Of a stretch of 10,240 nucleotides of DNA, positions 1 to 10,240 are shown piece after piece. Made by a program: the position numbers and the translations under genes. The stretch comes from a virus. Its lineage: Duplodnaviria; Heunggongvirae; Uroviricota; Caudoviricetes. The stretch lies in the IMG/VR virus record IMGVR_UViG_2529292726_000022, positions 1-10,240 of that record. One strand, given 5' to 3'. Below the pieces are notes generated by a model. The model searched no databases and was not told the origin of the DNA. It was given only the letters and a program-made list of their open reading frames with translations. How positions within the stretch are numbered: position 1 is the stretch's first letter; every line of letters begins with the position of its first letter.

Positions 1-1820
1 CCACCGAGATCCAGCGTCAGGCGCAGCAGTTTGTCAGAACCTTCGACAAACTCCGCGTTTTCAATCAGCGCCACACGCAGGTCAACTTTGGCGAAGTCGT
101 CAAAGGTGATGGTTTCCTGAATCGGGTCGTCAGCCAGTGGGCCAGTTACCGGTGCAGCTGTGGCTTTCACTTCTTCTTTGGATGCTTCCACCAGTGCTTC
201 CACCTGTTTCATATCGATACGGTTATACAGTGCCTTGAACGGATTCACTTTATGGCCCAGCAGCGGTTGCTGGATACCATCCCAGGTCAGTTCTGTATTC
301 AGGAATGCTTCTGCACGTTCAGTCAGTTTCGGCAGTACCGGTTTCAGGTACGTCATCAGCACGCGGAACAGGTTAATGCCCATAGAGCAAATCGCCTGCA
401 GATCGGCATCGCGTCCTTCCTGCTTCGCCACCACCCACGGAGCCTGTTCATCAACATAGCGGTTAGCCAGGTCAGCCAGTGCCATGATTTCACGGATAGC
501 TTTGCCAAATTCGCGGCTTTCCCATGCTTCGCCAATCACTTCAGCGGCATCAGTAAAGGTTTTGTACAGTTGCGGGTCAGCCAGTTCGCTTGCCAGCACG
601 CCGTCAAAACGCTTGTTGATAAAGCCTGCATTACGGGAGGCCAGGTTAACCACTTTGTTAACGATATCGGCATTCACACGCTGAACGAAATCTTCCAGAT
701 TGAGATCGATATCATCAATGCGCGAAGAGAGTTTCGCAGTGTAGTAGTAACGCAGGCTGTCGGCGTCAAAATGATTCAGCCAGGTGCTGGCTTTAATAAA
801 GGTGCCGCGAGACTTGGACATCTTCGCGCCGTTCACCGTCACATAGCCGTGAACAAACAGGTTGGTCGGCTTGCGGAAGTTGCTGCCTTCCAGCATGGCA
901 GGCCAGAACAGGCTGTGGAAGTAAACGATATCTTTGCCGATGAAGTGGTACAGCTCGGCGGTGGAGTCTTTCTTCCAGTAATCGTCGAAGCTGGTAGTGT
1001 CGCCGCGTTTGTCGCACAGATTCTTGAAAGAACCCATGTAGCCAATCGGCGCGTCCAGCCAGACGTAGAAGTATTTGCCCGGTGCGTTCGGAATTTCAAA
1101 ACCGAAGTAAGGTGCGTCACGGGAGATATCCCACTGTTGCAGGCCAGATTCAAACCACTCCTGCATTTTGTTTGCCACCTGCTCCTGCAACGCACCGCTG
1201 CGGGTCCATGCCTGCAACATTTCGCTGAAAGAAGGCAGATCAAAGAAGAAGTGTTCGGAATCACGCATTACCGGTGTAGCGCCAGAAACCACTGATTTCG
1301 GCTCGATCAGTTCCGTCGGGCTGTATGTCGCGCCGCAGACTTCACAGTTATCGCCGTATTGATCCGGCGCTTTACATTTCGGGCATGTGCCTTTTACAAA
1401 ACGGTCCGGCAGGAACATGCCTTTTTCCGGGTCGTACAGCTGAGAGATGGTGCGGTTTTTAATAAAACCGTTCTCTTTCAGGCGAGTATAGATAAGCTCG
1501 GACAACTGACGGTTCTCTTCGCTGTGCGTCGAGTGATAGTTGTCATAGCTGATGTTAAAGCCTGCGAAATCAGTCTGATGTTCCTGACTCATTTCGCCAA
1601 TCATCTGCTCCGGTGTGATACCAAGCTGCTGTGCTTTCAGCATGATCGGCGTACCGTGGGCATCGTCGGCACAGATGAAATTAACCTCGTGGCCGCGCAT
1701 TCGCTGGTAACGAACCCAGACATCAGCCTGGATGTGCTCCAGCATATGGCCGAGGTGGATTGAGCCGTTAGCGTACGGCAGCGCGCACGTCACCAGAATT
1801 TTCTTCGCGACTTGGGTCAT
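1..1820 (-). CDS. metG: Methionine--tRNA ligase (MetRS), partial: N-terminal ~606 codons in window, C-terminus beyond window start
   Basis: Minus-strand translation from ATG (complement of 1818-1820) reads [29 protein letters not shown]... with the class I aaRS HLGH motif (encoded ~1746-1757) and KMSKS (encoded 810-824). The frame stays open to position 1, so it is absent from the ORF track (no stop in window). Plus-strand ORFs 160-459, 252-1295, 484-684 are antisense shadows. Confidence 0.95.
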
Positions 1821-1977
1821 AGTAGGCATTACTTCTTTGTAGTGAAAAGGGGCTTGATAGTAACAAAATGGCCTTATGTCTGCCATGTGATAACAGCATT
1901 TCTCATAAATGATTAAATGTCGTAGCTGGAGTACACTACAAGGCGACAATTGCGCAAATTAAAATAAAGGAGACGGG
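1821..1977. promoter_or_regulatory. Divergent metG / mrp intergenic promoter region
   Basis: 157-bp AT-rich gap between divergently oriented starts; SD-like AAGGAG at 1967-1972, 5 nt before the mrp ATG (1978). Individual -10/-35 elements not resolved by eye. Confidence 0.5.
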
Positions 1978-3078
1978 ATGAGCGAGTCCAAATCGCCGGA
2001 TGCCCTGAGAGCAATGGTAGCCGGTACGCTGGCTAATTTTCAGCACCCAACCCTGAAACACAACCTGACTACGCTTAAAGCGTTACACCATGTTGCGTTG
2101 ATGGATGACACACTGCATGTCGAACTAATCATGCCTTTCGTGTGGAATAAGCCTTTTGAAGACCTGAAAGAGCAATGTAGTGGTGATCTGCTCCGTATCA
2201 CTGGCGCAAAGGCTATTGACTGGAAGCTGTCGTACAACATTGCCACGCTTAAGCGCGTCAAAAACCAACCAGGCATTAATGGCGTTAAGAACATTATCGC
2301 CGTCAGCTCAGGCAAGGGCGGCGTGGGTAAATCCTCCACGGCGGTAAACCTGGCACTGGCGTTGGCTGCTGAAGGTGCGAAAGTTGGTATTTTGGATGCC
2401 GATATCTATGGTCCATCAATTCCAACCATGCTGGGCGCGGAAAACCAACGTCCAACCTCACCTGACGGTACTCACATGGCACCTATCATGTCTCATGGCC
2501 TGGCAACCAACTCTATTGGTTATCTGGTCACCGACGACAATGCAATGGTGTGGCGTGGACCGATGGCCAGCAAGGCGCTGATGCAGATGTTGCAGGAAAC
2601 TCTATGGCCTGATCTGGACTATCTCGTTCTCGATATGCCGCCGGGCACTGGTGATATTCAGTTGACGCTGGCGCAGAACATTCCTGTAACTGGTGCGGTT
2701 GTGGTAACTACGCCGCAAGACATCGCGCTGATCGATGCGAAGAAAGGCATTGTGATGTTCGAAAAAGTCGAAGTGCCGGTACTGGGTATCGTCGAAAACA
2801 TGAGTGTGCATATTTGCAGTAACTGCGGTCATCACGAGCCAATTTTTGGCACCGGTGGCGCACAGAAACTGGCCGAGAAATACAACACGCAGTTGTTAGG
2901 CCAAATGCCACTTCATATCTCTCTTCGTGAAGATCTGGATAACGGAACACCAACCGTTATTAGTCGTCCAGATAGCGAATTTACAGCTATTTATCGTGAC
3001 CTCGCAGATCGCGTTGCTGCCCAAATGTATTGGCAAGGTGAAGTAATACCTGGCGAAATCGCATTCCGCGCAGTGTGA
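1978..3078 (+). CDS. apbC: Fe-S cluster carrier ATPase Mrp/ApbC (NBP35 family)
   Basis: 366-aa ORF with SD; deviant Walker A SSGKGGVGKSST, CxxC motif (CSNCGH), and the MSESKSPDALRAMVAGTLANFQHP... N-terminus typical of enterobacterial Mrp; conserved divergent arrangement with metG. Confidence 0.95.
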   Translation: MSESKSPDALRAMVAGTLANFQHPTLKHNLTTLKALHHVALMDDTLHVELIMPFVWNKPFEDLKEQCSGDLLRITGAKAIDWKLSYNIATLKRVKNQPGINGVKNIIAVSSGKGGVGKSSTAVNLALALAAEGAKVGILDADIYGPSIPTMLGAENQRPTSPDGTHMAPIMSHGLATNSIGYLVTDDNAMVWRGPMASKALMQMLQETLWPDLDYLVLDMPPGTGDIQLTLAQNIPVTGAVVVTTPQDIALIDAKKGIVMFEKVEVPVLGIVENMSVHICSNCGHHEPIFGTGGAQKLAEKYNTQLLGQMPLHISLREDLDNGTPTVISRPDSEFTAIYRDLADRVAAQMYWQGEVIPGEIAFRAV

Positions 3079-3083
3079 TAAAA

Positions 3084-3104
3084 AGGCGGTGCATTGCACC
3101 GCCT
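3084..3104. terminator. GC-rich hairpin (aggcggtgc-att-gcaccgcct) between convergent mrp and UmuD'-like gene
   Basis: 9-bp perfect stem, 3-nt loop. On the minus strand it is followed by TTTTTAT (complement of 3077-3083), a good intrinsic terminator for the minus-strand gene ending at 3116. On the plus strand it is preceded by AAAA but lacks a U-tract. Confidence 0.6.
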
Positions 3105-3115
3105 AATCAGTTCTC

Positions 3116-3505
3116 CTACATCACGGGACAATCATCAAACTCGCCACTTCTTGCGTCGTTGATAATGTGAGTGATCACACCAAACACGGCATTGCTGCCC
3201 GTGCATGCATCGTCATCCTTTGGCAATGCTTCCTTCTTACCGGTTCTTAAATCCTCCAGATGCTGACGTGGGTACTTCCGGTATCTTTTTACGCGATATT
3301 CCCCATCCAGAGCGCATACAAGCAGAGAACCATCAACCGGGGTAAGTGAGGAATCGACCACCAGCAATGCACCCTGTAATATTCCCTCACGATGATGACT
3401 ATCAGCTGCCCTCATGAAGTAGGTCGCTGAAGGATGTCTAATTATCTGCTGATCAAGAGAAATACGGCTCTCAGCATAATCCGCCGCAGGAGAAGGGAAG
3501 CCCAT
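3116..3505 (-). CDS. UmuD-family S24 peptidase, natively N-terminally truncated (UmuD'-like), 129 aa
   Basis: Starts MGFPSPAADYAESRISLDQQIIRHPSATYF..., co-linear with UmuD from the residue after its Cys24-Gly25 self-cleavage site. Ser of the Ser-Lys dyad retained (AADSH vs UmuD SGDSM), Lys retained (VKRYR vs VKKLQ). In-frame TAA 12 nt upstream of the ATG (complement of 3518-3520) rules out an N-terminal extension. SD AAGAGG precedes ATG. No umuC-like gene follows. Confidence 0.8.
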   Translation of the reverse strand: MGFPSPAADYAESRISLDQQIIRHPSATYFMRAADSHHREGILQGALLVVDSSLTPVDGSLLVCALDGEYRVKRYRKYPRQHLEDLRTGKKEALPKDDDACTGSNAVFGVITHIINDARSGEFDDCPVM

Positions 3506-3521
3506 AATACTCGCCTCTTAA

Positions 3522-3541
3522 CACTGTATATACATACAGTA
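3522..3541 (-). promoter_or_regulatory. LexA operator (SOS box)
   Basis: Minus-strand TACTGTATGTATATACAGTG: CTGT-N8-ACAG palindrome matching the consensus TACTGTATATATATACAGTA at 17/20, about 16 nt upstream of the UmuD'-like start codon, the same geometry as the E. coli umuDC operator. Confidence 0.8.
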
Positions 3542-3566
3542 TATGTTGAAGCTATATATTTTTGAA
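3538..3566 (-). promoter_or_regulatory. Putative sigma70 promoter of the UmuD'-like gene, overlapped by the LexA box
   Basis: Minus-strand -35 TTCAAA (complement of 3561-3566), 17-nt spacer, -10 TATACT (complement of 3538-3543); the -10 overlaps the upstream half of the LexA box. Confidence 0.5.
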
Positions 3567-3725
3567 CTCTATCTCTTAAAAAAGATGTTAATAAGATGCT
3601 AACTATTGAAAGGCATAAATATATACAATTCCAACAAACGTTATTTTTAACAAATTTTTTCTCTCCGTTGACTTTTGCGAAAGCCTTGTCTGGCCTAAAT
3701 TGCGCGGAAGCTACTTTTTCCTTAC

Positions 3726-3750
3726 AGAGTTATCCACAGAGTTATGCACT
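3726..3750 (+). repeat. Tandem 12-bp repeat containing DnaA-box-like 9-mers
   Basis: agagTTATCCAC / agagTTATGCAC in direct tandem (3726-3737, 3738-3749). TTATCCACA at 3730-3738 is a perfect DnaA box consensus; TTATGCACT at 3742-3750 matches TTATNCACA at 8/9. Confidence 0.3.
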
Positions 3751-3836
3751 TGCATGTATAACCTATACACACTATCTTAATTCGCAAGACACTGATGTTG
3801 CGGTATTGAAGGTTCATTGGGTTAAAAATAGACATT

Positions 3837-3867
3837 AAAAAGCCCAGTTGACTAGGCTGGGCTTTTT
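3837..3867. terminator. Bidirectional intrinsic terminator hairpin
   Basis: AAAAAGCCCAG-(9-nt loop)-CTGGGCTTTTT: 11-bp perfect inverted repeat with an A-tract 5' and T-tract 3', so it is U-tract-flanked on both strands. No confident CDS ends at it on either strand. Confidence 0.65.
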
Positions 3868-3900
3868 AAAAGGAAACAGAGTTTGCGGCTCTGTTCCTGA

Positions 3901-3920
3901 GCCATAAGTATCTGGCGACT
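3901..3920 (+). repeat. Direct repeat copy 1 (gccaTAAGTATCTGGCGACT)
   Basis: 20-bp sequence repeated at 4074-4093 with one mismatch (16-bp identical core TAAGTATCTGGCGACT at 3905-3920 and 4078-4093). Confidence 0.7.
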
Positions 3921-4073
3921 GAATTAAGATTAACCGAATGTACTGGATTCATCAAGAAACGTTGAGTGGTCATACCAGGTAATAATGACCATTTACTAAA
4001 CATCGTTGTTCTCAAAGAAGATTTAAGTCCAGGTTTTTGGTGACTCTAAAACCTTACCTTAACTCGAAATCGT

Positions 4074-4093
4074 GCCGTAAGTATCTGGCGACT
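4074..4093 (+). repeat. Direct repeat copy 2 (gccgTAAGTATCTGGCGACT)
   Basis: Second copy, 173 bp downstream of copy 1; preceded by AAATCGTGCCG (4066-4076), which recurs inside the small ORF at 4189-4199. Confidence 0.7.
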
Positions 4094-4167
4094 ACAGATA
4101 TTGCAACTGCAAAGGCAAGCCCAAAGGTATTTGCAGCTAGGCGCGATAAAACTAAGTGAGGCCTGTT

Positions 4168-4251
4168 ATGGTTAACTTACTGTTCAAAATCGTGCCGCCG
4201 ATGTTCGCGATTATCAAAGCGATCATTGAGTACGTAAACCAGCGTCCATAA
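4168..4251 (+). CDS. Candidate small hydrophobic protein, 27 aa (MVNLLFKIVPPMFAIIKAIIEYVNQRP)
   Basis: ATG at 4168 preceded by SD-like GTGAGG with 6-nt spacing; stop TAA 4249-4251; terminator hairpin 14 nt downstream. Peptide is mostly hydrophobic with a charged C-terminal tail. Too short for the ORF track. Confidence 0.3.
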   Translation: MVNLLFKIVPPMFAIIKAIIEYVNQRP

Positions 4252-4264
4252 CGCTAGTTGCTAC

Positions 4265-4297
4265 AGGCCCCATCAAGAGCATGGGGCCTCTTTATCG
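4265..4297 (+). terminator. Hairpin (aggcccca-N9-tggggcct) plus CTTTAT tract downstream of small ORF
   Basis: 8-bp GC-rich perfect stem followed by a short T-rich tract on the plus strand. On the minus strand it sits 18 nt past the stop of the operon's last gene (4307) but has no U-tract in that direction. Confidence 0.5.
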
Positions 4298-4306
4298 TAC
4301 TATTGC

Positions 4307-4933
4307 TTATTTTTTACGGACTGAGTTGTTCACTGCTCTGGCAATCTTCTCCCGCAATTGCTGCGTTCCGTGGTACTGAACCGCAATATCTCTCAACTCG
4401 TTCACCAGTTCTCGAATCTGGTGATCTTTAAGCTCATTATTTGGGTGATTGGTAACAACTCTGGTTAATTCACCCTTGTCTTTTGCTCTTACGTATGCAG
4501 CTCTTGTGCATTCGACCCATGTATTACCGCCTACATTAACTTCGTAGATTAGGCTGGACTTATCTGTCAATTCGGAACAAATACGGGCCGTGGTCTGGCA
4601 ACTAGAGCATTCGCAGTTATCGCGGAAACCGTGATCTACCGGTCGAGAAAGAGGTTTAACTTTTTCATCCAACTTCATCACAGCATCGTGATAAGCGTTC
4701 CAGCCGTCATCTTTACCAAGTTGATAAATCTCTGAAGGCTCCATGTAGTCTATATCGCAACCTTCTTCATCCGATCTATCTGGTCGCTTCCCTGGTAATC
4801 GCTCATAAAAACGATTTCTGTCTCGACGTTCGGCTCTCAGTGCTAACGCAAGAAGTTGCTCAAGCGAGGTATTTGCACCAGCAATAATTTCATTGAGAAT
4901 ATCTTCTGTGAGATCTTTCGCTACCGTGCTCAT
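4307..4933 (-). CDS. Hypothetical protein, 208 aa (last gene of operon)
   Basis: Long minus-strand ORF; ATG (complement 4931-4933) overlaps the stop of the upstream gene (ATGA); contains a Cys cluster (CECSSCQ). No recognisable family by eye. Confidence 0.7.
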   Translation of the reverse strand: MSTVAKDLTEDILNEIIAGANTSLEQLLALALRAERRDRNRFYERLPGKRPDRSDEEGCDIDYMEPSEIYQLGKDDGWNAYHDAVMKLDEKVKPLSRPVDHGFRDNCECSSCQTTARICSELTDKSSLIYEVNVGGNTWVECTRAAYVRAKDKGELTRVVTNHPNNELKDHQIRELVNELRDIAVQYHGTQQLREKIARAVNNSVRKK

Positions 4934-5313
4934 TTATCTCTCTCAGTATGTTGCGATGGCGTAAATTTGACGACATCAAATATTTTGGATGGCATCAACT
5001 TTATCCGCGAGCTTAGTTCGGCTCTTCTCTGTAATGCGGTTAATAATGTTTTCGTTCTGACGCCTTCGTGTATCCTCATCCCTGGCACAAGAACTACATC
5101 GCAGGGGAGATGCTCAGGTGACAAATCATTTTGGGCATCGCTAATCAGTCGTGTAATCTCTCTTTCAAGCCGACCGCCTAGCTCTGTTTTAGTGCAATGT
5201 TCTGACCAATCGCCAGCCTCAAGCAGCGCGAGAATGCTTAAAATATCGTCCAATAGATCAGTGGTATTATCGACTTCCTTCTGAAGCTCACCGGCTACTG
5301 ATTTATGCATCAT
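4930..5313 (-). CDS. Hypothetical protein, 127 aa
   Basis: Minus-strand ORF starting ATGATG (MMHKS...), start overlaps stop of upstream gene (ATGA at 5310-5313). Confidence 0.7.
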   Translation of the reverse strand: MMHKSVAGELQKEVDNTTDLLDDILSILALLEAGDWSEHCTKTELGGRLEREITRLISDAQNDLSPEHLPCDVVLVPGMRIHEGVRTKTLLTALQRRAELSSRIKLMPSKIFDVVKFTPSQHTERDK

Positions 5314-5963
5314 TCGTCATCCTCATCCGAGTCATCCTCATCACAGGATGAGAGTAGTGGGTTAGTCATTCGCCCTACTTGAGTGGCATAGCCACGCCGA
5401 CAGAGATTGCGCAGCACACTGTATATTTCGAACATCTCGGTTCGTTCATCGCCAACATCAAGCTCAGATGCTATAGCGTGGCATTCAGTCGCGAGAGCCG
5501 ATATTTTCTGAAATAACTCTGCATTATTCACTGTTCGACTCCTGCGGCGTTCTGGTAGTGGCATCCAGTGTGTGGCATTGCTAATCAGACCATATTCATT
5601 AGTTTGAGGATGGTTGCCGTTATCGTCTCCGTATTTAAGACTCTCCATAAAGCCATAATGCCTATCACCATTAACGCTCACAAAGCCGTAATAAGCAGGT
5701 ATAACGCCGATCTCACACATAACCAGTAACGGAAAACTAGTTCTCCAATTTAGCTCGCCAATTACAGGCATTCGCTCACTACAGCTTATCCAACCATCCT
5801 TAGATGCGGCTGTATTGGCATAGGCCTTACGGTGCTTCTGTAGCTCTGCTGCAATCGCTCTCACGACTTCAACTGGTGCCCTTGCAGCAAACTCAATGTT
5901 GGTGATCAGCTCATTAAGATATTTCTCGCTTGGGTAGCATTTCTTATTGTTAACGGTGGTCAT
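5310..5963 (-). CDS. Hypothetical phage-type protein, possible DUF551-like domain, acidic C-terminal tail, 217 aa
   Basis: Minus-strand ORF; motifs DGWISCSERMPV ... ATHWMPLPE resemble the W-I-S-x-x-x-R-(L/M)-P ... HWMPLP signature I associate with prophage DUF551 proteins (memory-based). Ends in DEDDSDEDDE. Start ATG overlaps upstream stop (TAATG). Confidence 0.7.
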   Translation of the reverse strand: MTTVNNKKCYPSEKYLNELITNIEFAARAPVEVVRAIAAELQKHRKAYANTAASKDGWISCSERMPVIGELNWRTSFPLLVMCEIGVIPAYYGFVSVNGDRHYGFMESLKYGDDNGNHPQTNEYGLISNATHWMPLPERRRSRTVNNAELFQKISALATECHAIASELDVGDERTEMFEIYSVLRNLCRRGYATQVGRMTNPLLSSCDEDDSDEDDE

Positions 5964-6148
5964 TAGGCAGCTCTCTCAACAACAAGCAATTCGTCGTAGT
6001 CATAATCAGTTTCGGAACCATCCGTACCGAACAGAGTCACTTTGTCATTTTCCATCCAAAAAGATTTAACCGCACATTGTTGACCTTTAGATGTTATGAG
6101 CACATCACCAGGGATTACGTCTTCAGCGCGAACCTCTAGTGTTCTCAT
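5963..6148 (-). CDS. Hypothetical small protein, 61 aa (MRTLEVRAEDVIPGDVL...)
   Basis: The ORF track starts at a TTG (6184) inside the upstream gene; the ATG at complement 6146-6148 has a strong SD (AAAGAGGG) about 7 nt upstream and lies 4 nt after the upstream TAG, so is preferred. Confidence 0.6.
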   Translation of the reverse strand: MRTLEVRAEDVIPGDVLITSKGQQCAVKSFWMENDKVTLFGTDGSETDYDYDELLVVERAA

Positions 6149-6152
6149 CGTG

Positions 6153-6566
6153 CTAACCCTCTTTGGTGAAAACGCCTGATGCAATACTGTTTATGATGCT
6201 GTCAGTACAGGGAGTAGAAAGCTGGGCATCTCCAGCTATTTTCATGACTTCGACATCCGCATATCGAATACCGAGGTGTATCAGACCTGCTATACCTGAC
6301 TTAAGTCGAACATTTTCCATAAACAGATCCTTTTCCCGCTGTTTAACGGTCTCCAGCTCAACACGCAACTTCTCAATTTCGGCAGCCATGTAGTAACCAA
6401 CCATAGCGAATACGGCAAAAGAGTTGTCTGCCTCATCAGGCGACACTGAGGCCATTAGCAGACCATCGTAATAATCGTGACTCCCATTGGTGATCGCCAC
6501 CGCATAGGAGTCGTGGTTCTCACGCTTGTGAATGAGAACTACGGGGTTTTCGATTTTGTTACTCAT
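6153..6566 (-). CDS. Hypothetical protein, 137 aa
   Basis: Minus-strand ORF with ATG at complement 6564-6566, preceded by AAGAGAAAAACAC; central charged segment (EIEKLRVELETVKQREKDLFMENVRLK) suggests a helical/coiled region. Confidence 0.7.
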   Translation of the reverse strand: MSNKIENPVVLIHKRENHDSYAVAITNGSHDYYDGLLMASVSPDEADNSFAVFAMVGYYMAAEIEKLRVELETVKQREKDLFMENVRLKSGIAGLIHLGIRYADVEVMKIAGDAQLSTPCTDSIINSIASGVFTKEG

Positions 6567-6704
6567 GTGTTTTTCTCTTCTTTGCTGTTACATAAGCACT
6601 ACCAAGTGCTGGTTTATTTTCACAAATAAGAAAAGGTAGAAAACAATTTATTTAAGGCCACAACTTATGGCCTTTATTTATTCATGCCGAAGGATTTGTA
6701 GCGT

Positions 6705-7085
6705 CTAATTGCCGGATAAAATGGGGTGAGGTGCTTGCCAGTAGGCTCCACCGGTCCATGTGAACCCCATGCGAATAAGAGGGTTTATTGCGGCTTTGGT
6801 AGACTCCGATTCGACACTGGCTTTTCGAAACTCTTGAACCTCTTTCGCCAACCTGTATGTAATTGTGCAGGGGACGATTGCAGCCCAGCCTTTCTCATGA
6901 CTGTTAATGACCATCTGGATGTGACCATCCAGAATAGGTTGATTAGGCATGTTATTGAAAACGTCTGCCTGTTTTTGAATGTGAATAAAAAGCCTTGCCA
7001 GCTCCATTTGCTCACTACGAGACAAGGGATTATCAAGAGGGCTTTTTGCAAAAGCGGCTATACGCTGTGCGTCAATGCCAAACAT
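6705..7085 (-). CDS. Hypothetical protein, 126 aa
   Basis: Minus-strand ORF; ATG overlaps the stop of the upstream gene by 1 nt (TGATG at 7083-7087). Confidence 0.7.
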   Translation of the reverse strand: MFGIDAQRIAAFAKSPLDNPLSRSEQMELARLFIHIQKQADVFNNMPNQPILDGHIQMVINSHEKGWAAIVPCTITYRLAKEVQEFRKASVESESTKAAINPLIRMGFTWTGGAYWQAPHPILSGN

Positions 7086-7789
7086 CAGCGCACCTCACCA
7101 TCTTTATGGCTGGAGTTAACTTCCGCCATTAAATGTCTGACGTAATCGACAAGAGAGCCACCTGGTGGAATCTGGCATTCCTCAACTAACTGGAAGTAGA
7201 TATCCGCTGCATTACGTGTATTGCTACCCGCACATATTCTTTCTTCCCGAAGTGCATGAAGCTCGTTGATCAAACGGTCACACTCTCCGTTACGCTGATC
7301 CACAACGGCCTCAAGCTCTGCGACGCGTTCACCTGGCGTCTTACCTTCTTTGCGTTGGATGGTAACGACGAAATCGCCAATTGCAGGGACGTTGTAATCC
7401 AGCTCAAGGTAGTTTTTGGCACCGCTGCGGACGAACTCACCCGCGAACATGGTGGCGAACATCGCAGAGGCCACTTCGCCGTTGAAAAGTGACTCAAGAT
7501 CTAACGGAGTCCCGGCAGCAAGAGCCTCTTTTGCTGTATCCATTGCATCCATGAACCGATCAAACTCACTAGCGCGCTTTTCCATGTCTTTCCATTGCTC
7601 GCTCCAACGTTTGGCAACGAAGTCTATGAATGTTTTCGCGGATTCATCAAAATTCCCCTCAAACTTAACGATGCCTTTATCAATAATAATCTGGCCTACC
7701 GCATCCTCTGCATAACCTTTCAATGTAAACTTGAAAGGAAAATCAGAATGGCCTGTGACGTTAAAATGCTCTAACTGGAGGTTGTTCAT
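7085..7789 (-). CDS. Hypothetical protein, 234 aa
   Basis: Minus-strand ORF with ATG at complement 7787-7789, preceded by the same AAGAGAAAAACAC initiation region as the 6153-6566 gene. Confidence 0.7.
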   Translation of the reverse strand: MNNLQLEHFNVTGHSDFPFKFTLKGYAEDAVGQIIIDKGIVKFEGNFDESAKTFIDFVAKRWSEQWKDMEKRASEFDRFMDAMDTAKEALAAGTPLDLESLFNGEVASAMFATMFAGEFVRSGAKNYLELDYNVPAIGDFVVTIQRKEGKTPGERVAELEAVVDQRNGECDRLINELHALREERICAGSNTRNAADIYFQLVEECQIPPGGSLVDYVRHLMAEVNSSHKDGEVR

Positions 7790-7850
7790 GTGTTTTTCTC
7801 TTATCGTTTAGTTACTACATTCTTACACAAATTAAGTAAGTATTTACCTA

Positions 7851-9536
7851 TCATTTAACGCGTTTGAAAACGTATACGCTGACTGTGATCCCGGTATCTT
7901 CAAACTCGTTGGTAAACGACTTCCCTCTGGCATAAACGTAATTATCCATCGTCATCCAGTCCAGTATTGGCGCAGTGCCCGGCAATACTGCTACAAGACG
8001 CCCGCCGACTTTCAGATGCCCCAGCGCAGCCAGCGTGTGCTCTCTATGACGACCAAGCGAGTACGGCGGGTTCATAACGATTTTGTCGAACTGATAACCT
8101 GCGTTGTCCTCAGACCACTTTATGAAGTCGCAGCAAATCGTGTTCGTATACCCTTTTCCACGCAGGATATCAGCGAAGAGAGGTGCGATTTCTATGCAGG
8201 TAACATCTTCCAGATCGGCGTTAATATAGGCCAGAAGATCCCCACGTCCGGCTTGAGGCTCCAGCAGCTTCTCACCAGGCTTCAATTCAGTGGCTCTGGC
8301 AACGTACTCAGCAATCAAGCGTGGGGTAGGGTAGAACTGGTGTGATTTTGTATCCGGTATTAAACCGGTAGCCACAATCGTATTTAGCGTATGGCCGATG
8401 TCATACGGGAACTGCCAGTGCTTTTTCTCCTGCACGCCGCCAATGAAGCTCAGTGTGCGCTCAAGCTCTTCCACCTGCGACTTCTGGAGAGCTGAATCAG
8501 AGAAGTACCATACGCCTTTGTCTTTGCTCAATCGCCCGTCACGAAGCGCAGTGCGAACCGGCACGGAGATCGTCTTCTGGATTAACCCGAACTGCTTTGG
8601 TGCCCGTGTTTTTGGCGCAGTTCGGCATGGCGCGGGAATTGCAGCAGGCATACTGTAAGCCAGCACCTCATTCAACTTCCAGGCCACGTCAGGATGTATT
8701 TCAAAGTGAACGTTGCCGTTCTTGAACATCTTCACGCGCATCAGATTTCCATCGACGTTCATCCAGTCACCGGTCTGGCAGTCGTTTGCCCGATACGCAG
8801 CTGATAGCACCTCAGCAGTGCGGTTGATGGTAATAAATTCTTTGTGCGCGAAGAAATGAAGCAAGACACGCAGATCGTCGATGTAGTCCTCTTTGCGATA
8901 GTTCACGCTAACGCTGTCCCGCCAGAAATCAGAAATGCAGTCAGCGATTATCAGACGCTCGCTGAAACCGTTTGTCTTATTTGTCTTGTGCGCAGGACTC
9001 AGCGCCTTAAACAAGCCATACACGCGCTCAGAGAGATATTTGTGCCTGTCATTCAGCAAATTAAGCATCGTGGGTATGACCGTTTCTGCTTTGAACTCCG
9101 GTACACCAACGAACTCTTTAACCTTCATCTGGTAGCCGGTTCTGTCAGTTTTGATGACTTCCTGTTTGCCCTCTATAAACTGCTCGCGCCACTCATCTCG
9201 ACGGGAAGCTGGCATGATCAGCAAAACGTTAGTCATGTCCGTGACCTTCCTCCAGTACTCGGCCCAAATATTCTGTTTCACCCATTCCAGATCGACTTTA
9301 TCCAACCAACCTCGATTTAAACGCGAGCGATCTTCATCTGGTCGATGGTTTAGTCTCAGCAGGCGATTAATCATGTTGTGGCGTTCGTCGCCATAAACGA
9401 AGTCGTGTACCTGATACATGAAGGCGATCTCTTTCTCGCACTCGGCCACGATTTCGTGGATGACATTCATTTCCTGACGATAGTCGATAGCCGTGTTTGA
9501 GCTGGCATCGTCGCTGATGGAAAGGGCTGTATTCAT
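7851..9536 (-). CDS. 561-aa protein: ~380-aa N-terminal region of unknown function plus C-terminal gamma-class N6-adenine (amino) methyltransferase domain
   Basis: Motif order FYPTP (motif X-like), LEPQAGRGD (motif I; EPQAGRGD encoded 8238-8261), ~55 aa, then MNPPY (motif IV, encoded 8061-8072), typical of gamma-class amino-MTases. Only ~70 aa follow NPPY, so no obvious C-terminal target-recognition domain. First gene of the operon. Confidence 0.8.
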   Translation of the reverse strand: MNTALSISDDASSNTAIDYRQEMNVIHEIVAECEKEIAFMYQVHDFVYGDERHNMINRLLRLNHRPDEDRSRLNRGWLDKVDLEWVKQNIWAEYWRKVTDMTNVLLIMPASRRDEWREQFIEGKQEVIKTDRTGYQMKVKEFVGVPEFKAETVIPTMLNLLNDRHKYLSERVYGLFKALSPAHKTNKTNGFSERLIIADCISDFWRDSVSVNYRKEDYIDDLRVLLHFFAHKEFITINRTAEVLSAAYRANDCQTGDWMNVDGNLMRVKMFKNGNVHFEIHPDVAWKLNEVLAYSMPAAIPAPCRTAPKTRAPKQFGLIQKTISVPVRTALRDGRLSKDKGVWYFSDSALQKSQVEELERTLSFIGGVQEKKHWQFPYDIGHTLNTIVATGLIPDTKSHQFYPTPRLIAEYVARATELKPGEKLLEPQAGRGDLLAYINADLEDVTCIEIAPLFADILRGKGYTNTICCDFIKWSEDNAGYQFDKIVMNPPYSLGRHREHTLAALGHLKVGGRLVAVLPGTAPILDWMTMDNYVYARGKSFTNEFEDTGITVSVYVFKRVK

Positions 9537-9577
9537 AATTACACCATTAAATAATTTGTTTTCTGATTGGTGTAATT
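9537..9577. promoter_or_regulatory. Perfect 9-bp inverted repeat abutting the methyltransferase start codon
   Basis: AATTACACC-N23-GGTGTAATT (9537-9545 / 9569-9577) directly adjacent to the ATG at 9536, so on the mRNA it covers the ribosome-binding region. Candidate operator or 5'-UTR stem-loop. Confidence 0.4.
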
Positions 9578-9633
9578 ATCGCAAACTTGAAAAGGCATAA
9601 AAGCTGCATTCATAGGCGTTACAGCAGATTTAA

Positions 9634-9660
9634 GGCGTAAAAATGGGGGCTGTCGCCCCC
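9634..9660 (-). terminator. Intrinsic terminator of the small gene 9678-9914
   Basis: Minus-strand GGGGGC-GACA-GCCCCC hairpin (9645-9660) followed by ATTTTTAC, 18 nt past the stop codon. Confidence 0.6.
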
Positions 9661-9677
9661 TGTCGACTGGTGCTGTA

Positions 9678-9914
9678 TTAGAGTGCGTATTGCGTTTTGT
9701 GCGGCTGCTTATTCAAGTCATGGCGATGCGTGAGCTCCCGCATCATGTCTTCAAGGCGACTCTTTGTGTCGTCGAGCTGGTCGGCCATTGCACCTAAAAG
9801 CTGGCGAACGGCCATCGGATCGTCGCTGTTTAGTGATGGCATTTTAGAACCTGCTTTAGAAGACATAAGGTTGATTGCAGACATCAACATCGTTAGAGAG
9901 GTATTAGACGTCAA
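9678..9914 (-). CDS. Hypothetical small protein (up to 78 aa; true start uncertain)
   Basis: Minus-strand ORF with its own terminator. The track start is a TTG; internal ATGs (MLMSAINL..., MPSLNSDD...) are alternative starts. The 5' end abuts the presumed IS21-family terminus, so it may be the 3' remnant of a disrupted gene. Confidence 0.45.
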   Translation of the reverse strand: MTSNTSLTMLMSAINLMSSKAGSKMPSLNSDDPMAVRQLLGAMADQLDDTKSRLEDMMRELTHRHDLNKQPHKTQYAL

Positions 9915-9918
9915 CTAG

Positions 9919-10240
9919 TTTTGCCGACTCGCGCCAACTATACTGGCCGCACCCTTCAGTGCGACATCAAGTCGCGCTTGTTACTGCCTTCGCTGTCTTT
10001 TTCCTGTAGCTTTCACCTTTCAGTTCGAACATATATCCGTGATGGATCAGCCGGTCTGCCGCCGCCACCGCCATAGTCTCATCCACGAAGATGCTGCCCC
10101 ACATGCTGAACGGATGGTTACTGGTTATCACCAGGCTCCCACGTTCATAGCGATGCGCTATTAACTCGAACAGTACTCCCGTTTCGGCGCTGTCGCGTTT
10201 GACATAGCCAAGATCATCCACCACTATCACCCGGTAGCGA
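9919..10240 (-). mobile_element. IS21-family insertion sequence, istB-proximal end (partial; exact terminus not determined)
   Basis: Inferred from the istB fragment; the terminal inverted repeat should lie in about 9919-9966, downstream of the istB stop, but I could not identify it by eye. Confidence 0.55.
9967..10240 (-). CDS. istB: IS21-family transposition helper ATPase IstB, C-terminal part (5' end beyond window)
   Basis: ...IVVDDLGYVKRD...LFELIAHRYERGSLVITSNHPFSMWGSIFVDETMAVAAADRLIHHGYMFELKGESYRKK... matches the IstB Walker B-to-C-terminus signature (D-D/E-L-G-Y, RYE, TSN, DRLxHH, ELKGESYR). The track's M at 10230 is internal. Confidence 0.9.
   Translation of the reverse strand, partial: RYRVIVVDDLGYVKRDSAETGVLFELIAHRYERGSLVITSNHPFSMWGSIFVDETMAVAAADRLIHHGYMFELKGESYRKKTAKAVTSAT

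Follow-up and report, generated by a model that had tools for sequence, protein, structure and literature searches.

A methyltransferase-headed gene cluster in an SSU5/pHCM2-like phage-plasmid is probably an accessory arm of two units rather than one system

Eight co-directional minus-strand open reading frames (ORFs), numbered g1 to g8 here, occupy much of the window analyzed in this work, a stretch of 10,240 nucleotides (nt) that makes up positions 1 to 10,240 of the IMG/VR virus record IMGVR_UViG_2529292726_000022 (Caudoviricetes) and that we assign below to an Escherichia coli phage-plasmid of the SSU5/pHCM2 type. A sequence-only reading had described these ORFs as one compact, translationally coupled operon headed by a methyltransferase (MTase) fusion, located in a prophage early or accessory region and reminiscent of methylation-associated defense or anti-restriction modules. 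The ORFs themselves were correctly placed, and RefSeq annotates identical ORFs in a plasmid that is 99.5% identical. Their coordinates and products, with lengths in amino acids (aa), are as follows.

7851..9536, minus strand: g1, 561 aa, with a helical N-terminal region (1 to ~130), DUF4942 (140-295), a linker and a C-terminal class I amino-methyltransferase domain (396-561)
7085..7789, minus strand: g2, 234 aa, found directly 3' of g1 in SSU5-like phage-plasmids of Enterobacteriaceae
6705..7085, minus strand: g3, 126 aa, 'Eaa-like' small phage protein whose start overlaps the g2 stop (TGATG); 63% to SSU5_097, a 'putative Eaa protein'
6153..6566, minus strand: g4, 137 aa, chimeric, with an 'Eae-like' N-terminus joined to an 'Ea22-like' C-terminus
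5963..6148, minus strand: g5, 61 aa, small phage protein (phrog_15283), also present in a lambdoid prophage early-left region
5310..5963, minus strand: g6, 217 aa, with a phrog_6847 N-terminus (1-49), DUF551 (57-138) and a phrog_4220 C-terminus (145-217)
4930..5313, minus strand: g7, 127 aa, residues 1-61 corresponding to the N-terminus of the single gene CYRAN_97 of phage Cyrano
4307..4933, minus strand: g8, 208 aa, residues 83-208 corresponding to the C-terminal part of CYRAN_97

Inspection of the reverse complement bears out the five tight junctions that had been reported, namely TGATG at g2/g3, a 4-nt gap at g4/g5, TAATG at g5/g6 and ATGA at both g6/g7 and g7/g8. The two larger gaps measure 61 nt (g1/g2) and 138 nt (g3/g4). 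A purine-rich Shine-Dalgarno-like stretch lies 5' of each of the eight starts. Each of the eight products has a full-length match to a PHROG phage family (E 1e-26 to 1e-299), and the ORFs are thus real phage genes. The scarcity of recognizable signatures was likewise confirmed: Pfam returns DUF4942 and a sub-threshold N6_Mtase match in g1, DUF551 in g6 (E 2.4e-9) and nothing for the other six products, and NCBIfam returns no match for g2-g8.

Window positions 3100-9905 align with ~110-kb circular E. coli plasmids such as pCUVET20-PYO4.2 at 99.5% nucleotide identity over 6.8 kb, with further matches to phages Cyrano and CMS-2020a and, more distantly, to Salmonella phage SSU5. Annotated neighbors comprise thymidylate synthase, dfrA51, nrdAB, RNase H, a Dam-like MTase, tciA/tciB, humD and plasmid-borne metG and apbC, a set that marks the backbone as SSU5/pHCM2-like. 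The gene order thyA-dfrA-...-rnhA-tciAB-g0-MTase, where g0 denotes the core gene upstream of g1, is kept in SSU5, Cyrano and Klebsiella pJN2-26, and both identity and gene order place the window among the ~100-118-kb SSU5-like elements. Judged by these comparisons, the source is an extrachromosomal SSU5/pHCM2-like E. coli phage-plasmid, and a chromosomal prophage is ruled out. The host element is typed as non-mobilizable. The eight genes lie in its variable accessory arm, bounded by tciA/tciB-g0 on one side and by humD-apbC-metG on the other. That is to say, the earlier placement in an early or accessory, moron-like phage region was essentially right, but the element is a phage-plasmid and not an integrated lambdoid prophage.

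The corresponding arms of SSU5 (SSU5_095-098), Cyrano (CYRAN_90-97) and pCUVET20-PYO4.2 belong to the same element and share its flanking synteny as well as the promoter-like motif and palindromic box described below; the SSU5 MTase is 92% and the SSU5 g2 76% identical to those of the window. The window differs from these relatives in its g4 chimera, its split g7/g8 and an IS21-family insertion that truncates g0, and SSU5 and the Klebsiella relatives carry an HD-domain gene and other genes in place of g4-g8. The region is already in databases, nearly identical in many records, and is an ordinary cargo hotspot of a known phage-plasmid family.

Conservation does not extend to the cluster as a whole. 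For E. coli complete genomes, all matching genomes were counted, followed by those matching at a coverage of at least 80% (second number).

Flanking core g0-tciB-tciA: 228 genomes; 205
g1 and g2 together: 242 genomes, with no chromosomal place; 177
g3-g8: 1,258 genomes, with fragments at 1,125 chromosomal places; 73
g4 alone: 492 genomes; 68

The full gene set is present in about 70 of ~230 E. coli phage-plasmids. An IMG/VR survey covered 80 loci with a g1 relative, 54 of which extend at least 5.6 kb downstream of the MTase, and scored a gene as present at a coverage of at least 70%. Its results, arranged by MTase identity, are given below.

At least 95% identity, 12 loci: g2 in 11, g3 in 11, g4 in 10, g5 in 7, g6 in 8, g7 in 2, g8 in 2
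80-95% identity, 15 loci: g2 in 8, g3 in 3, the others in none
45-80% identity, 9 loci: none of g2-g8 downstream
Below 45% identity, 18 loci: none of g2-g8 downstream

All of g2-g8 occur together at two of the 54 loci. Consistent co-occurrence of the eight genes as a unit, which had been put forward as a check on the module idea, is thus seen neither in the E. coli genomes nor in the IMG/VR loci, and the pattern is a mosaic. In E. coli pYLPD4a and Klebsiella pKPT877 (IncFIB), the whole block from mid-g1 to g8 has given way to hot (Pol III theta) and a complete type I restriction-modification (R-M) set, hsdM-hsdS-hsdR, with a g1 stump of the first 62-157 codons left behind. From such exchanges the locus behaves as a defense/counter-defense cargo hotspot.

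The head gene, g1, carries a DUF4942 (PF13708; E 1.7e-20, 74 bits against a gathering cut-off of 25) and a minimal catalytic domain with the motifs FYPTP, LEPQAGRGD and MNPPYS. The order FxTP, motif I (ExxxGxG) and NPPY, which is gamma-like, on a class I Rossmann fold is that of an N6-adenine-type amino-MTase; no recognizable target-recognition domain is present in g1. Near-full-length homologues reside on ~100-118-kb contigs of Escherichia, Salmonella (including pHCM2, 'YdiA'), Klebsiella, Citrobacter, Cronobacter, Enterobacter, Xenorhabdus, Providencia, Moellerella and Morganella, and by synteny g1 is a core gene of the SSU5-like lineage. The fusion architecture that had been singled out as special is standard in a large family, given that tblastn identifies relatives covering at least 80% of g1 on 2,136 PLSDB plasmids. 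Among more distant relatives, pHCM1 (IncHI1) encodes a full-length protein of 31% identity, and a Variovorax lambdoid prophage carries a 35%-identical one in its early-right operon, beside a second MTase. MTases of the g1 type sit among unrelated neighbors elsewhere.

A search of g2-g8 and g0 for a cognate nuclease using Pfam, NCBIfam and PADLOC returned no nuclease, helicase or ATPase family, which sets the locus apart from an R-M system; since no nuclease or other defense component accompanies it, g1 is an orphan methyltransferase. In phages and in plasmid leading regions, orphan MTases are an established means of countering restriction by shielding incoming DNA (PMC11541004, PMC7736820). 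YdcA, an MTase of the IncF leading region that adjoins ssb, psiA and an antirestriction gene, shares 31% identity (E 2e-14) with the catalytic domain of g1. Leading-region orphan MTases of the YdcA and M.EcoGIX/M.BceJIII types stand alone on a mobile element without a nuclease, as g1 does, and the role proposed for g1 is the same. In contrast to g1, which has a 395-aa DUF4942-containing N-terminal extension, YdcA comprises only 187 aa. Derivation of g1 by fusion of the IncF pair YdbA and YdcA was considered and rejected: YdcA alone matches the catalytic domain, and YdbA is without similarity to the g1 N-terminus. M.EcoGIX was likewise rejected as a relative. It and M.BceJIII are beta-class enzymes with a DPPY motif, encoded in conjugative leading regions (PMC7736820), whereas g1 has NPPY with motif I upstream and is borne by a non-conjugative element that has no leading-strand entry context. 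Literature searches for DUF4942, an SSU5/pHCM2 methylase and an SSU5 operator retrieved no functional study.

Directly downstream, g2 is 63-98% identical to its counterparts in SSU5, Cyrano and pJN2-26, and all 196 of its homologues lie on phage-plasmid-sized contigs. It is absent from Providencia and more distant relatives, one Providencia relative having ParDE in that place. By its distribution, g2 alone among g2-g8 behaves like a partner of g1, and within Enterobacteriaceae only. A Pfam hit to DrmE_N in g2 (E 0.022, 14.6 bits against a cut-off of 27) is noise, and an AlphaFold model of g2 built from an 18-sequence alignment was unusable, with a predicted local distance difference test (pLDDT) score of 50.8. 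Searches against PDB sequences gave nothing significant for g2 (profile search), g4, g6 or g8.

The remaining genes have the character of interchangeable cassettes. Alignment with Cyrano divides g4 into residues 1-97, which match an 'Eae-like' protein, and residues 60-137, which match the C-terminus of an 'Ea22-like' protein; the same C-terminal 78 aa close proteins that others have annotated 'ead/Ea22-like'. The recombination breakpoint recurs at ~6364-6372, and in sister plasmids the g4 slot is filled by 1-6 different genes. Comparison of g4 with PDB sequences by phmmer (E up to 1) and with NCBIfam gave no match, and g4 does not qualify as a member of the lambda Ea22 family. The space between g3 and g5 holds an HD-domain gene and two others in one sister plasmid, a ClpX-type zinc-finger gene and several more in another, and an Ea22-like array in E. 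coli pR9-658-1, a sister phage-plasmid in which ISEcp1-blaCTX-M-15 also stands in g6. This insertion lies inside the g6 homologue at the equivalent of window ~5424-5429, and at the junction the blastn alignments on either side have 6 nt of window sequence in common (5424-5429). The Prokaryotic Genome Annotation Pipeline (PGAP) annotates g6 as a pseudogene plus a small ORF. In Cyrano, g7 and g8 are the two ends of one gene (CYRAN_97), and the last ~45 aa of g8 form a module common to several PHROG families.

Part of this material has a lambdoid counterpart. Window positions 5834-6376, covering the g4 C-terminus, g5 and the g6 N-terminus, are 95% identical at the nucleotide level to a segment of an O157:H7 prophage that sits in the early-left operon between anti-RecBCD/kil/cIII and xis/int. 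This segment, together with DUF551 in g6, links part of the cluster to the lambdoid early-left 'ea'/exo-xis genes. A match of the genes to an early-left region near xis and int, which had been named as evidence against an independent module, therefore exists for this portion of the cluster only. No such lambdoid chromosomal matches were obtained for g2, g7 and g8, which are essentially confined to phage-plasmids. As in the lambdoid or P22-like early-left region, g3-g8 are small, co-directional, overlapping genes of the non-essential early kind, DUF551 included; in contrast to that region, they lie here on a plasmid-prophage, with neither int/xis nor recombination genes next to them.

An identical 16-nt translation-initiation region, AAGAGAAAAACACATG, is present at the g4 and g2 starts (6564-6579 and 7787-7802, respectively, minus strand; 0.01 expected) and recurs at cassette starts in sister plasmids. 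It may represent a short homology used in cassette exchange.

The intergenic sequences contain a set of candidate regulatory features, listed here in the direction of transcription of g1-g8; we infer their promoter, terminator and operator roles from conservation and position.

9645..9660, minus strand: terminator-like hairpin GGGGGCGACAGCCCCC followed by ATTTTT, placed before g1, where it would terminate g0; also present in SSU5 and Klebsiella pJN2-26 as a conserved feature
9575..9595, minus strand: promoter-like motif 1, CCTTTTCAAGTTTGCGATAAT, with extended -10 TGcGATAAT; its 3' end is 38 nt upstream of the g1 ATG
9549..9561: palindromic operator-like box of the AAACAA-N-TTGTTT type with 1 mismatch, between the -10 element and the g1 start codon
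6654..6674: conserved hairpin in the g3/g4 gap, likely a terminator or RNA-stability element ending the g1-g3 unit
6641..6653: the palindromic box again, placed where the g4 promoter-like motif would have its -35 element
6616..6636, minus strand: promoter-like motif 2, CCTTTTCTTATTTGTGAAAAT; its 3' end is 49 nt upstream of the g4 ATG
4265..4289: strong hairpin 3' of g8 (the 81-nt stretch 4230-4310, in which it lies, has z = -4.5)

The promoter-like motif, CCTTTTC-N3-T-N-TG-N2-A-N-AAT (extended -10 type), was found from alignments only. It occurs twice in the window, both times on the minus strand, where 0.01 copies are expected, and both positions are kept in all the SSU5-like loci that were examined, those of SSU5 and Klebsiella among them. 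The hairpin at 6654-6674 exhibits compensatory stem changes among the window, a sister plasmid and Klebsiella. The hairpin at 4265-4289 has its T-tract on the plus strand only, so that it would close a convergent small plus-strand ORF and probably also the g4-g8 unit. Five of the seven junctions between the eight genes are no wider than 4 nt; the g1/g2 gap and, above all, the g3/g4 gap, with its covarying hairpin, conserved promoter-like motif and box, do not sustain the view of a single compact operon. This arrangement points to at least two transcription units, g1-g3 and g4-g8.

The palindromic box extends well beyond this locus. In 30.8 kb of pCUVET20-PYO4.2, AAACAA-N-TTGTTT occurs 13 times against 0.24 expected, with 12 of the 13 copies just 5' of minus-strand gene starts. 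Among IMG/VR loci, the 669 kb of SSU5-like DNA contain 195 exact boxes, and the 484 kb from unrelated phages, which also encode distant DUF4942 MTases, contain none. The box is probably the operator of a scattered regulon under one DNA-binding protein, and no description of it was found in the searchable literature. In phage P1, operators of the C1 repressor are scattered over the genome, each an asymmetric 17-bp site. Both P1 operators and the box are short repeats placed before many transcription units of a plasmid-prophage; the box differs in being palindromic and in having a role that is predicted.

An inverted repeat, ATTACACCA-N21-TGGTGTAAT, spans 9537-9579 on the minus strand, bracketing the g1 5' region and ending at the start codon. 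Its arms match perfectly in the window and, thanks to one compensatory change, in Cyrano as well, but the repeat has degenerated in SSU5 and Klebsiella. A function as an RNA switch was considered and set aside, as the 5' arm is probably upstream of the transcription start.

These observations are probably best explained by an accessory arm of an SSU5/pHCM2-like phage-plasmid that joins a core orphan MTase unit to a shuffled cassette unit, the two being co-regulated without forming one system. Unit 1 (g1-g2-g3) would start at the conserved extended -10 promoter-like motif and encode the core orphan amino-methyltransferase with its conserved partner g2. The most likely task of g1 would be to methylate the DNA of the element itself, which would allow it to survive host restriction upon entering a new cell as phage or plasmid. 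Unit 2 (g4-g8) would start after the conserved hairpin, at the second copy of the promoter-like motif, and would consist of small lambdoid cassettes of the 'ea/exo-xis' type that have been shuffled by recombination at short shared sequences and are freely replaced in sister plasmids. Because both units share the palindromic box found before many other gene blocks, they are probably co-regulated members of the scattered regulon.

Several results weigh against this explanation. A generic sigma-70 scan flagged no site in either intergenic gap and found fewer promoter-like sites than in shuffled sequences. The g3/g4 hairpin has no canonical T-tract on the minus strand, and read-through from g1 into g4-g8 is possible for this reason. 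Where the type I R-M system stands instead, g1 is dispensable, which fits an accessory role and is no proof of anti-restriction. The closest structural matches of g1 include rRNA and tRNA N6-methyladenosine (m6A) MTases (METTL5, KsgA, Erm, TrmN), so that DNA methylation by g1 is deduced from context and family annotation. Lastly, the N-terminal 395 residues of g1 have no structural or sequence analogue.

The RNA-modifying enzymes among these matches also favor a different assignment, in which g3-g8 would be exo-xis ('ea')-like modulators of host physiology and of the decision between lysogeny and lytic growth, and g1 would be regulatory through epigenetic or RNA methylation. Further points in its favor are the near-identity of g4C-g5-g6N to the prophage early-left segment, the 'Ea22-like/Eae-like/Eaa-like' annotation of relatives, and the influence of exo-xis genes, ea22 included, on lysogenization and induction (PMC7093339, PMC3824215). 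However, g4 has no sequence match to solved structures even though that of lambda Ea22 is published (PMC10834534), and the 'Ea22-like' label of g4 accordingly rests on the annotation of relatives that share its C-terminus. Phage and plasmid NPPY MTases of the g1 type are, moreover, usually DNA enzymes, and the highest identities among the g1 structural matches are those of TaqI and CamA. We consider this assignment possible, though it is not the one we expect to be correct.

Somewhat more doubtful is an anti-defense island, in which g1 would protect by methylation and some of g2-g8 would be independent small defense inhibitors or superinfection-exclusion factors, sharing control by the box and produced early after entry. 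The variable hotspot has also taken up a type I R-M system and resistance genes, its small, fast-shuffling early-phage-type genes resemble known anti-defense cargo, the promoter-like motif and box are common to both units, and the g1 catalytic domain is related to an MTase of the IncF leading region, a region enriched in anti-defense genes (PMC11541004). Nevertheless, none of g2-g8 matches a known defense or anti-defense family in Pfam, NCBIfam, PADLOC or PDB sequences, and the lambdoid relatives are tied to the lysis-lysogeny decision and not to anti-defense (PMC7093339, PMC3824215). We regard as distinctly unlikely a related proposal that g1-g2 form a dedicated establishment module, with the DUF4942 region conferring an unusual target choice, g2 serving as a cofactor, g4-g8 providing exchangeable anti-defense or exclusion cargo, and a box-binding repressor switching all of them jointly. 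The target choice in such a module could be, for example, broad, replication-coupled or single-strand, by analogy with unrelated leading-region enzymes.

The idea that all eight genes constitute one methylation-associated defense system, with g1 marking self DNA and g2-g8 as effectors, is very improbable and already largely refuted by the failure of the genes to co-occur. It draws on an amino-MTase heading a co-directional cluster, as in the methylation-associated defense system (MADS), bacteriophage exclusion (BREX) and the defense island system associated with restriction-modification (DISARM), on the type I R-M system held by the same locus in sister plasmids, and on a PADLOC mad2 match to the g1 catalytic domain (E 1.1e-15). 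That match covers 130 residues (394-523) of a generic MTase fold, and g1 is matched by generic type II MTase models as well; PADLOC found no mad, BREX, DISARM or other model in g2-g8. Accordingly, the full mad set is absent, and there are no PADLOC matches for PglX/PglZ/BrxC or for DrmA/B/C/E with DrmMI/II. No ATPase, nuclease, helicase or kinase domain was found with Pfam or NCBIfam. In contrast to those systems, the downstream genes are small (61-234 aa), variable, mosaic and individually replaceable, the MTase persists without the other seven in most relatives, and the hairpin and second promoter-like motif split the cluster into what appear to be at least two units. The module suggested at the outset is not supported.

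Since that reading fails, the significance of the region as an 'eight-gene system' is small. Clinical E. coli, Salmonella and Klebsiella nevertheless often contain SSU5-like phage-plasmids, and these carry resistance genes, as exemplified by blaCTX-M-15 in g6 of one sister. Such plasmids are easier to interpret once this arm is recognized as a cargo hotspot with a dispensable orphan MTase at its head, one that a type I R-M system can replace. Two aspects merit specialist attention: the DUF4942 methyltransferase family, experimentally uncharacterized although full-length relatives are found on more than 2,000 PLSDB plasmids, and the lineage-specific palindromic box, a concrete handle on the regulation of non-structural genes in SSU5-like elements.

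The sequences flanking the arm contain further features. On the upstream side, an IS21-family element at the right end of the window (9906-10240; IstB C-terminus at 9967-10230, minus strand) interrupts the core gene g0, an insertion that the closest plasmids lack, and leaves the following remnant.

9678..9914, minus strand: g0 remnant, 78 codons that include the C-terminal 74 aa of the upstream core gene, which encodes a 188-aa phrog_5508 protein

On the downstream side, an ~800-bp AT-rich spacer at 3506-4306 is unannotated and conserved in sister plasmids. An Rfam scan of the whole window (E up to 0.1) matched nothing, and neither Pfam nor Rfam matches were obtained for the spacer or its ORF. 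The spacer holds a bidirectional terminator at 3835-3869 and two direct repeats, GCCrTAAGTATCTGGCGACT at 3901 and 4074 and TCrAAATCGTGCCG at 4064 and 4184. The convergent small ORF mentioned above lies at 4168-4251 on the plus strand; its 27 hydrophobic codons (MVNLLFKIVPPMFAIIKAIIEYVNQRP) are served by a GAGG ribosome-binding site and end at the hairpin at 4265-4289, facing g8, and it may encode a small membrane peptide or toxin. Beyond the spacer, humD (3116-3505, minus strand) is UmuD'-like (NCBIfam HumD, 8e-66), and a perfect SOS box, CTGTATATACATACAG, stands at 3524-3539, 19 nt 5' of its start. Positions 1-3078 carry the plasmid's own copy of metG (methionyl-tRNA synthetase) and apbC, ~90% identical to the E. 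coli chromosomal locus; SSU5 is without both genes in the region examined, whereas the complete E. coli genomes have the plasmid copy at 222 plasmid places.

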